This document shows positions 47,839 to 50,800 of a stretch of DNA of 64,000 nt, in pieces. Origin of the DNA: an uncultured Clostridia bacterium (GTDB lineage Bacteria > Bacillota > Clostridia > TANB77 > CAG-465). The notes under the pieces were generated by a model, which saw nothing but the letters and a program-made list of their open reading frames with translations, searched no databases and was not told the DNA's origin. The stretch covers positions 12,784 to 76,783 of the forward strand of contig CANPWO010000002.1 in assembly GCA_947584535.1 (NCBI GenBank), given 5' to 3'. A program made the translations under genes and the position numbers. Positions within the stretch are counted from its first letter, which is position 1. Each line of letters opens with the position of its first letter.

Positions 47839-50800
47839 TTATTTTTGGACACACACCGCGCGGAACCCGTTGTCACTGCCCGCACCGCCAGCGAGGTAGT
47901 AGAAGTAGAATAGCCCCGCATTAGTACCACTATCGCGGTAATCGCCTCCACGTAACAAGAACGGAAGCGACATGCCAGAGAACCATGAATAGTCGCTAAA
48001 CCAACTTGTTTTGCCACTTCCAGAAGTGGATGTCTCCCATATTGCTTCTCCTTTTCTTGTACTATTTGTTGATTCTTTATAATTGTCTTCTTCAATATCA
48101 GATGATGCTATGTTATATACCGATACGTATTTTGTTGATGTTCCTTTATTTTTTACGTTACTTTCATTTAATAGTGCTTGTCCATAGCTTTTTAAATTAC
48201 TATTACCATTATTTAGATATCCTGCTGTATATTCATTTGCTCCTCCACTCATATCATATATTCCATATATATTTCCTGTTGTTGAGGCTTTTTTACCTTC
48301 TGTTGTATTATATGCCGCTGATGCTGTTGTTCCATATCCTGTTTTTGCACTACTTTCATTATTTTTGTTTTGCGTTACCTCTACTCCATTTCTTCCATAT
48401 TTACTTTGTGCTAAGTAAGCTACTGCTCCCCATTCACTATTCTTCATTTGATGTGTATCTGCTGTTGAATAAGAAAATCCGTATGGATTACCACTATTTG
48501 TTGCTAGATTTTTACATAGTGTAAACATATCTCCTATTGTGATATTTGTATATGAAGCAGCATTTGGTATAAATTTTGGATATGTTTGACTTGATGTACT
48601 TTCTATTTTAATTCCTTTGCTTGCTTCAAATTTTGCTACCCATATTCCTGTTAGTTCACTATCCCAACCTCCATTTGCAAATCCATTATTCTTTTCATTT
48701 ACAAATGCTGGATGTACTATATAATCTTTTGGTATATCATGTAAATTTCCATTTTTATCTTTATACTGATTTGTTGTTCCATCTAAGAAGATTACATTTA
48801 TATCACTTGCTTCACTTGTATATGGAGTCTTTATCTTATATGCATATCTTGGTATCCATACCCATTGACTTTCATCTTTTGTTTTGGCATTTGCCCAATG
48901 ACTTGTTTTACTATCTGTTCCATAAGTTCCTTGACTTTTATATGTATACCAACTGCTACTTGATGAATTAGTTGATGTTGCATTTCCATTACTATCAAAT
49001 GTTATTGCTTCCATACCTGTTAATAATTTTGGCGCGTTTACTTGTTCTTCACCAGCTGTCAATGTTTCTGTGTTACTGCTTTTTGTTATTATATATCTAA
49101 ATGGTATATTTGCTTTATTTTCATTTACAAATTGTTCATTTCCTGTTACTGCACCATCATAAAAGTTAGCTATAAGATCAGATTCATTATATATTGCTGT
49201 ATGATTTACTTCAATTATTGGTGAAGTTGTACTTACTAAACCATCATCATTTCCTAATGTTAGTATTTTTTCTGATGTACCATTACTATTATATATTCCA
49301 TATTTTCCTGTTATTTTTCCTCCTGTTATATCTACTTCTCCACTTGCAAACTCTATTGCATCATCAGTAATTGAATGTACTTCTCCTCCTGTTATATTTA
49401 CTGTTCCCATTGCTCTTATTCCATCATATCCTTCTACTTTTCCTTCACATACATATAATCTTGCTTTTGTAGAAGCATTATATACTCCATAGCTACCTGA
49501 GCCACCTGTTGAACTTACAGTTCCATAGATGTTTAATGTTCCTGTATTATTTATTGCAGGTTTACTTGCTGTTGTACTTATTTTACCAGAACTTAAATAA
49601 TAAATAGACCCTGCATTATTTATTACACTATATCCTGTACTTGATACTGTACCATTCTGTAATTCTAAATTTCCGTTATTTGTTATTACATATTGATTGG
49701 TTGAAGTCGATGAAATTGTATGTCCTTCTAAGAACAAAATTATTTCATAACCATTTTTTACTGTTAAAATTTCATTACTTATATCTTTTAGCAAATACAG
49801 TTCACTTTGTGATGAATAATCAAATGCATCTTGTAACTTTCCAAAATATTGATTATTAATTGATTTTACTACTGCTTCTCCTACTGTTGCTGTTTCTTCA
49901 TTTCCTGATTTACTTAATAATACATGTTGCCCTTCTTTTGTTGTTACTTTACTATAATCACTTATTGCATTATAATTATTTACTCCTACAGCAGTTCCTC
50001 CATACATATTTACTTTTCCTGTACCTGATATTTCTATACCATGATTTTGTGTGCCTTTAAACATTCCATTATTTATTGTTGCTATTCCATTGTTAGCAAC
50101 AGATAAAGCATTTGGTCCTATTATTGTTGTATTATTATTTATTGTTAAATTACCACTAGTATGTGCTCCAATATAATTACCACCTTCTACATAAACTCCA
50201 TTTAATATCATTGTTGCATTATTATTACTTATTGCTGTTGCTCTATTATTTTTTATTGACGTACTATCTGTTCCATTTCCATTTATTGTTAATGTTCCCA
50301 AATTTTCTATTGTAAATACATCACTATTAAATTGTCCACTTATTGAATAAACATCCATATTTAACGTTGCATAGTGTCCACTTGCAAATGTTGCTTTACT
50401 TGTTAATGTTATGTCTTTTAGTAATGTTATTGTTGAAGGTGAATCACTTGACTGTGAGCTTGCATTAAATGCACTTTGTAATGTTGCATAATTTTTACTT
50501 CCTATACTTGCTACTGCATCTCCAAGTATTGCTGTTTCTTCATTTCCTGATTTGCTTACTACTACACTAGATCCTGACTTTGGAGTTACTCTACTATAAT
50601 CACTTATTGCATCATTTATTCCTTTTACTGTTCCACCATTCATATTTATTTTCGAAGTACTAAGTACCTTTATTCCAACATCTGTTGTACCTGTTATCAA
50701 ACCATCATTTATTATTAATGTATCATTTCCATTACATTCTATTCCTTTAGGTCCAGATATTGCTGTTCCATTATTTATCGTTAATGTATTATCATTTCTT

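Follow-up and report, generated by a model that had tools for sequence, protein, structure and literature searches.

A probable variable region of a diversity-generating retroelement at the C-terminus of a 2,711-residue Clostridia protein

Among the targets of diversity-generating retroelements (DGRs), those in category 'b' of Wu et al. 2018 (PMC5758913) carry a CLec1 (C-type lectin) variable region (VR) at the C-terminus of an FGE-sulfatase-like domain. In TaqVP of Thermus aquaticus (5VF4), the FGE-type CLec domain begins at residue 112 according to the paper describing that protein. DGRs of the type that diversifies TvpA of Treponema denticola serve several remote targets, and remote targets of cellular DGRs more than 100 kb away are documented (PMC5758913). 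One metagenome survey states that it is blind to targets distant from the reverse transcriptase (RT), and surveys requiring the VR to lie beside the RT would miss dispersed targets (PMC8144416). A G-type pilin is listed among the rare VR-bearing domains in one survey (PMC11661182), and no description of the protein family studied here, or of DGR targets combining a pilin-like segment, a stalk and a VR, was found in the literature examined. Here we analyse a 64,000-nt stretch (the window) of contig CANPWO010000002.1 from an uncultured Clostridia bacterium, in which a giant gene on the minus strand (47839-55974) is an open reading frame for 2,711 amino acids, counted from the ATG. We put at about 50% the probability that the last ~46 codons of this gene form a DGR VR that is still active and that a DGR in another part of the genome serves it in trans. 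Membership of the tail among DGR VRs at the family level is supported by sequence homology, composition and flank evidence. We infer in addition that this tail itself would have been written by retrohoming and would still be being rewritten.

The segment concerned (47848-47985, minus strand) comprises 46 codons, WFSGMSLPFLLRGGDYRDSGTNAGLFYFYYLAGGAGSDNGFRAVCV, and is assigned as a putative DGR-type VR on its G+C-rich, A-poor codons, which are foreign to the host, and on its alignment with the verified VRs and template repeats (TRs) of four related loci (L003, L051, L064 and L009). The giant protein ends in ...SWFSGMSLPFLLRGGDYRDSGTNAGLFYFYYLAGGAGSDNGFRAVCVQK*, and the translation agrees with the tail as written in the original prediction. 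On the coding strand the 138 nt contain 45 G, 41 T, 34 C and 18 A (57.2% G+C, 13% A), equal to the earlier hand counts of ~57% G+C and 18 A, whereas the giant gene overall has 30.7% G+C and 47% A, and the window averages ~25% G+C. This is the most G+C-rich 138-nt span of the entire 64 kb (0.58 vs 0.43 for the next distinct peak), and in the rest of the giant gene any span of that length has at most 0.42 G+C and at least 0.38 A. The abrupt change of codon style that had been predicted is borne out by counting. Phenylalanine is encoded by TTC in 5/5 cases in the VR vs 2/35 elsewhere in the gene, tyrosine by TAC in 4/4 vs 7/106, arginine by CGN in 3/3 vs 0/36, and proline by CCG in 1/1 vs 0/58. 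The G+C content of third codon positions (GC3) is 0.65 in the VR vs 0.094 elsewhere in the gene, and the A content of third positions (A3) is 0.065 vs 0.63. The shift of the tail lies in synonymous choice and not in amino-acid content alone.

Codon use switches sharply at 47985/47986 (...TTT AGC GAC TAT TCA, then TGG TTC TCT GGC...), where the edge of the segment had been placed, with one small correction: the likelihood change-point of G+C content falls upstream of this switch, at ~48038, owing to the moderate G+C richness of the conserved WETSTSGSG segment. By alignment with family TRs, the equivalent of the VR start is perhaps ~9 nt further upstream than the codon switch, near 47994. At the other end, the G+C-rich body of the VR is joined to the 3' flank by an A-rich stretch that encodes Gln-Lys (CAA AAA) and the TAA stop (47839-47847, minus strand).

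An ordinary origin of such a tail, namely as conserved coding sequence of an FGE/lectin-like domain whose composition arose by selection or chance with no DGR involved, is hard to square with these counts, since protein selection accounts neither for synonymous G/C at third positions in 65% of codons vs 9% elsewhere in the gene nor for the use of CGN for arginine in 3/3 vs 0/36 cases. The original prediction had allowed that the composition shift might be common to orthologues. In the nearest homologue, locus L001, G+C in the tail is 38%, which shows that orthologues do not conserve the shift. In favour of an ordinary coding origin, neither a TR nor an RT is tied to this copy, and 64 of the 89 family tails surveyed for composition fall outside a G+C-rich, A-poor cut, many of them host-like without any DGR sign. 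As a proven DGR locus is matched in its non-coding spacer too, as described below, we regard this explanation as very improbable and largely refuted by the results in hand.

The VR would occupy the last 46-50 residues of a 400-residue ligand-binding-type domain at the C-terminus (47842-49041, minus strand), which the giant protein has in common with a family of ~555-residue proteins. Relatives of this domain number 7,587 at E<=1e-3, mostly from gut Clostridia, the best being 65% identical; the 78 genomic copies of the family come nearly all from metagenome-assembled genomes (MAGs) of uncultured gut Clostridia, and the family alignment (A1) displays the conserved columns of the domain. Four loci of the family, L003, L009, L051 and L064, contain proven VR/TR pairs, with the TR located 220-350 nt downstream of the VR. 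In L003 (GCA_964329075.1; target P0026) the VR spans 11517-11676 and the TR 11863-12022 (346 nt downstream), adjoined by a convergent RT (RVT_1) and bAvd; RT and bAvd stand beside the pair in three of the four loci (L003, L051 and L064). L009 is an uncultured Clostridia MAG sequence (CALXJF010000011.1) and the best match in the genome collection (50% identity). When each TR is compared with its own VR, mismatches fall at TR adenines in 14/15 cases in L003, 20/21 in L051, 16/17 in L064 and 19/19 in L009 (69/72 in total). Variation exists at the population level too: two 555-residue proteins of the L003 lineage (P0011 and P0015) differ at 10 residues, all of them within the last 50. Together, these mismatches and the differences confined to the tail show that adenine-directed diversification of the tail is real in the family.

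Tails adjacent to cassettes have a characteristic composition (54-57% G+C, 12-17% A, GC3 0.52-0.63, A3 0.02-0.11), while the genes that hold them have GC3 values of 0.10-0.19 (0.35 upstream of the VR of L009) and host-like family tails have 0.04-0.17. The window tail (57% G+C, 13% A, GC3 0.65, A3 0.065) lies within the cassette-adjacent group and outside the host-like one, and only 4 of the 89 family tails are more G+C-rich. Codon for codon, it can be aligned with both the VRs and the TRs of L003, L051, L064 and L009, at the same C-terminal place in the same domain. Codons that are rare in the host occur at aligned positions in the window VR and in the TRs of L009 and L051, including CCG TTC, CGT, GGC, GCG, TAC and a GGN TTC CGN GCG GTG run. 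After AGLFYF the window reads TAC TAC CTC GCT GGC GGT GCG GGC AGT GAC AAC, and the L051 TR reads AAC AAC AAC AAT GGC AAT GCG AAC AGC AAC AAT at the same place.

Divergence of the tail follows the adenines of related templates. When the window VR is set against three TRs of other lineages, mismatches affect 57-63% of the TR adenines but 31-35% of the remaining positions, giving odds ratios of 2.5-3.6 (p 1e-2 to 9e-4), compared with 2.3-4.3 for proven VRs against non-cognate TRs and at most 1.3 for AT-rich family tails. Against the TR-type tail of L001 the odds ratio is 3.65 (p 1e-3), with 0.63 for the reciprocal comparison and 0.4 for the 300 nt upstream. Part of what these tests measure is again the low A content of the tail, and they cannot count as independent of the composition result. 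What they contribute is the finding that the excess divergence is local and directional. The shared rare codons are the more independent evidence. Taken at the family level, the original reading of the tail as a DGR variable region holds: it is homologous to proven VRs and has in common with them its position, length, composition, rare codons and adenine-biased divergence.

The similarity to a proven locus continues beyond the coding region. The non-coding 3' flank of the giant gene (47704-47838, minus strand), which includes a second G+C-rich island at ~47690-47780, is homologous to the spacer between VR and TR in L009. A Smith-Waterman alignment of these 135 nt with the L009 spacer scores 56, compared with a mean of 27 (sd 4.3, maximum 52) for 500 shuffles and a mean of 29.6 (sd 4.5, maximum 42) for the 3' flanks of 90 other family tails. 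Two blocks are common to both sequences, GTGGC.CT..TACACT.AACACTTTTTT directly after the stop and GGCAA.AGT..GCG...GCGTAC.CTTTGTC, the latter forming a 15-bp hairpin in the L009 spacer. The G+C-rich island is thereby explained, as the counterpart of this hairpin. Folding of the window flank was not better than that of shuffled sequences and yielded no significant hairpin. The island had no match in viral contigs or plasmids and no BLAST match in the fetched family loci; Rfam gave no match around the VR and 3' flank, either at gathering thresholds or at E values up to 10, and no T-box ahead of the isoleucyl-tRNA synthetase (IleRS) gene that follows. An ordinary coding explanation does not easily account for non-coding flank sequence that is shared with a proven DGR locus.

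A motif 4 nt past the stop in the window, GCACTGATACAC, resembles GCACTTCGATACAC at the 3' ends of TRs, and a scan for motifs of this type over 2.3 Mb on both strands picked up one site in the window in addition to five in the fetched loci. Its assignment as a TR-type motif (IMH*, after initiation of mutagenic homing) was dropped as unsafe, as the same bases align better with the VR-side flank of L009.

A G+C-rich patch could also have arrived by homologous recombination or gene conversion from another family VR, in a paralogue or a foreign copy, with no retrohoming at this locus. The family is indeed multi-copy in many genomes, with three or four tails per locus in L014, L032 and L063 (the tails L063_2 and L063_3 being identical), and the WETSTSG... 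block upstream of the VR is conserved at the DNA level and could anchor an exchange. No second family copy was found in the window, however, and the foreign codon use begins, at its 5' edge, no more than ~9 nt from the start of the family TRs, which fits replacement by a cDNA and is not required by recombination. In addition, a DGR would have produced the donor segment in the first place. We therefore consider this route improbable.

Several results weigh against a VR that is still served, in addition to the overlap of the adenine tests with composition noted above. No TR was found in the 64-kb window, either by repeat search or by a scan allowing any mismatch at template adenines, and tblastn with the L003 proteins gave no RT, bAvd or MutS_I-like match there (best E 1.2-2.7); the original statement that the window holds neither a template repeat nor a reverse transcriptase is upheld by these searches, which extend 47 kb from the VR in one direction and 16 kb in the other. 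The L009 TR lies 220-240 nt past its VR, whereas the window keeps the first ~135 nt of the spacer and then runs into unrelated sequence. In relatives, VR/TR homology stops at a CACTT motif; in the window, indels of 6 and 4 nt have disrupted or removed it (GGTGTCTCACTTTAAAAAAG in L009 vs TGTGTCCAAAAATAAG in the window). The junction at 47662, which follows the spacer homologue, varies between strains, and no TR stands after that homologue in the window. A VR 21-mer (GGGTTCCGCGCNGTGTGTGTC) had no match in genome, viral or metagenome contigs, a result that says little as the source genome is not among them. No second same-species copy of the VR was found, the best relative of the tail being 65% identical and the same-species contigs ending before the VR. 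Likewise, a 72-nt adenine-degenerate pattern of the VR had no match in viral contigs, and metagenomes gave none for a 26-mer taken from the conserved upstream block. Exact look-ups of proteins from the window and BLAST against phages and plasmids were also negative.

The same-species contigs concerned are L087 and L088 (Logan runs ERR10663694 and ERR10663696), whose IleRS is 98% identical to that of the window and whose nucleotide match of 98.3% extends only up to 47651 and 47662, respectively; the breakpoint of similarity lies at 47662-47663 (no strand). Since one contig ends at 47651 and the other diverges at 47662, both before the VR, the VR is not comparable between strains. In L088, 155 nt upstream of the 47662 junction have no counterpart in the window, and their alignment with a DUF3298 gene was too weak to say whether they represent an empty-site junction.

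The 8.1-kb giant gene of the window has DUF3298 (56217-56930) on one side and IleRS (44529-47456) on the other. In three loci from related species with IleRS 64-69% identical (L090, L091 and L093), the block corresponding to the surroundings of window positions 47663-56216 consists of a histidine kinase, a LytTR regulator, YabP, YqfD, YbeY, a dCMP deaminase and DUF3298, with IleRS following directly. As DUF3298 is directly followed by IleRS in these species, the giant gene together with its VR and ~176 nt of 3' flank is an accessory insertion in a conserved housekeeping block. In a strain with an 81% identical IleRS, an open reading frame fragment upstream of IleRS (L089, 3-164) ends in ...RIRVIIWKQWEKISKREKSLKQLGVEPE, which we take to look like the C-terminus of a group II intron maturase and which would be a different insertion at the same hotspot.

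These features bear on the most serious alternative, that the VR has recently been orphaned: after having been written by a DGR it would have moved with part of its spacer, or lost an adjacent TR by deletion, and would now be frozen and bound to decay toward host composition. The spacer homologue ends without a TR, and homology to the same-species contigs starts 43 nt further, at 47662. The insertion of the giant gene into the conserved DUF3298-IleRS block, the indels in the motif that ends VR/TR homology and the lack of RT, TR and Avd in 64 kb all fit such an event; as the junction varies among 98%-identical strains, it may be recent enough to have left the composition undecayed. On the other hand, the 8.1-kb reading frame is intact, and GC3 of 0.65 is at or above that of VRs beside intact cassettes, so there is no sign of decay toward the AT bias of the host, as would be expected of an active target. 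Furthermore, ~20 family tails have DGR-type composition with neither TR nor RT within the flanks read (up to 8 kb), which would be hard to explain if all were orphans, and remote targets of the family also keep only a short VR-side flank. We judge orphaning a serious possibility, at somewhat less than even odds.

Remote service of the VR, as we favour it, agrees with what is seen elsewhere in the family. The 25 tails of the 89 that fall inside the G+C-rich, A-poor cut, plus L009, form a set of 26. A TR occurs in the flanks read of 4/26 (L003, L009, L051 and L064), three of these loci also having an RT; for at least 8 of the TR-less tails, ~8 kb was covered on both sides. DGR-type tails without a local template are thus usual in the family, which favours an active remote target; MAGs with such tails include those of L011, L019, L038, L043, L045, L047, L062, L078, L083 and L085. 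The VR of L082, a remote target, shows 11 adenine mismatches and 3 others when set against the TR of L064, which stands on a different contig of the same MAG, and compared with L064 only a short piece of the VR-side flank is kept. Dispersed targets, distant from any cassette, look common or normal in this family.

Some relatives, on metagenome contigs, show an arrangement in which the tail of a family gene runs into sequence of the type found downstream of a TR, the spacer being skipped (L001 and L002, 6620-7000; L013, ~1320-1400; L079, ~9390-9480). These tails are followed by GCACTTCGATACAC... in L013 and L079 and by ...TCTCACTTTGGTATGAAAG... in L001, where the tail itself is Asn-rich and TR-like. 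Either VR/TR recombination has deleted the spacer or the assembler has collapsed the VR/TR repeat; the latter would corrupt predicted targets such as P0001. In L009 (9306-10561) and L001 (6800-11661), a TR or TR-type tail stands beside the target, and flanks of 8 kb upstream and 0.8-4.8 kb downstream gave no RT. This lineage may keep its RT at a distance from the TR, an arrangement uncommon among DGRs. An IS200-type Y1 transposase lies downstream of the TR-type tail in L001.

The giant protein is composed, in order, of an N-terminal pilin-like hydrophobic segment, Big_2/fn3 modules, repeated modules and the family domain with the VR. Big_2 is matched at 1.2e-67 in 7 stretches, and fn3 is also matched; the repeated modules, several in number, have 190-210 residues each and correspond to internal DNA repeats of 560-640 nt. 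The N-terminal segment, MKKRNNGISLLVLIITIIVMIILA, resembles a pilin or signal anchor and also the N-terminus of the family. Checked against the type IV pilin G/(F,M,I)xxxE motif, the sequence MKKRNNG-ISLLVLIITIIVMIILA has the glycine and the hydrophobic helix and lacks the Glu at +5. Weak matches to Pfam N_methyl occur in 6/31 relatives (best E 0.0023), and the family profile matches the geopilin N-terminus at E 0.002, so that a putative pilin-like N-terminus is weakly supported. As most relatives have ~555 residues, with the same type of N-terminus joined directly to the same domain, the giant protein can be seen as a family member with a long stalk inserted between anchor and tip.

The predicted likeness of the tip to FGE/C-type-lectin domains is borne out in part. 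The family profile matches TaqVP at E 5e-4 over residues 114-209, which correspond to the start of its FGE-type CLec domain, and Pfam FGE-sulfatase matches 5/31 relatives (best E 1e-5). The window protein itself stays below threshold (E 0.02, 15 bits, cut-off 23.3). Modelling of the fold, as had been proposed, neither supports nor opposes the assignment: two AlphaFold models reached values of 59 and 40 in the predicted local distance difference test (pLDDT), with less than 50 over the VR, and were too poor for use, and with models of such low confidence the Foldseek fold search was uninformative, returning only noise. Sequence profiles thus support a tip of the FGE/C-type-lectin class, and the target class of the window would match category 'b' of Wu et al. 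(PMC5758913).

From established DGR biology and the family members observed here, a mechanism can be proposed. An RNA bearing the TR would be copied by the DGR reverse transcriptase, with misincorporation opposite template adenines, and the resulting cDNA would take the place of the VR. Ligand-contacting codons of the TR would thereby change from AAY to NNY, and scaffold codons, being adenine-free, would stay unchanged. The giant protein would be a surface fibre consisting of a pilin-like anchor, Ig-like (immunoglobulin-like)/fn3 spacers and an FGE/C-type-lectin-like tip, and in a fibre of this kind rewriting would change the binding specificity of the tip. More tentatively, and with doubts that we think outweigh the support so far, the gene may be one node of a largely undescribed network in gut Clostridia, in which a small number of DGR cassettes would act in trans on many scattered pilin-like adhesins and rewrite them, fibres of 2,700 residues included. 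In such a network, the VR with a partial spacer would be a portable unit that renders a gene targetable.

If the VR is still served in trans, a retroelement at least 16-47 kb distant would be reprogramming the binding tip of a very large surface fibre, and such service would add evidence that the DGR target repertoires of gut Firmicutes are much larger than cassette-based surveys report. If it is orphaned, the locus records how a target gene parts from its cassette, moving with only part of the VR-TR spacer. In practical terms, the results yield a marker for AT-rich genomes: DGR-written tails are recognised by ~140 nt of G/C-ending, adenine-free codons at the C-terminus, whether or not the template is seen.

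Other parts of the window contain additional features. A long operon on the minus strand (14355-34791) encodes mostly unrecognisable proteins and looks like a divergent Tad/Flp-type pilus or secretion system. Its members include a SAF/CpaB-like protein (33634-34791), a P-loop ATPase with a weak TadA-family match (30135-32027) and, at 24462-27977, six small proteins with N-terminal hydrophobic segments, e.g. MDNAQKAIMIGVGLFITIIIIAAVMLI; L093 repeats the same operon genes, with SAF followed by products of 237, 270, 630 and 685 residues. The IleRS (minus strand) is highly divergent, scoring 256 bits against TIGR00392 with a cut-off of 621 and E 3e-15 against Pfam tRNA-synt_1. Relatives of this IleRS make up a small clade that is almost confined to Logan and ENA assemblies; identity to the next IleRS group is ~25%. 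Two AAA_14/DUF4143 ATPase genes of opposite orientation (11263-12558, plus strand; 39649-40947, minus strand) have an inverted 47-nt match in common. The second copy, together with a D-Ala-D-Ala carboxypeptidase gene, is flanked by two direct repeats of 73 and 107 nt (39491-39654 vs 41274-41924), which are 91-92% identical and ~1.8-2.3 kb apart. Upstream of the first copy, the intergenic region 10962-11097 holds three tandem 42-nt units (TATGTCCACTTTTAAAAA...AAATAAA...).

The locus may finally be set beside the systems that it most resembles. With the DGR of Bordetella phage BPP-1, which acts on Mtd, it would have in common adenine-specific mutagenic retrohoming, presumed here, into a C-terminal VR of CLec fold with a G+C-rich 3' end. 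Unlike in BPP-1, the setting is cellular, the target stands apart from its cassette, and an IMH or hairpin pair is not definable. As in the TvpA and TaqVP targets, the VR takes up the last ~45-50 residues and ends in ...GFRxV..., within a scaffold RGG...AG.F.F...GFR that has variable NNY codons between its residues. The window protein differs from that class in its 2,711 residues, its pilin-like N-terminus, its long stalk of Ig/fn3 modules and repeats, and in having no cognate TR or RT known. Within the Clostridia, targets of ~555 residues such as P0026 of L003 have the homologous 400-residue domain (41-50% identity), an N-terminal hydrophobic segment, and the same VR position and VR codon style. 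These proteins are five times shorter, and the L003 locus is ordered as target with VR, TR, convergent RT and bAvd. L009 comes close in the spacer homology of the 3' flank and in the rare codons of the VR; it differs by its TR 220-240 nt downstream and by a VR end (…GGTGTCTCACTTTAA) that is longer than that of the window by two indels. What lends the locus added interest is the size of its protein, together with the suggestion that most targets of the family lie away from any cassette.

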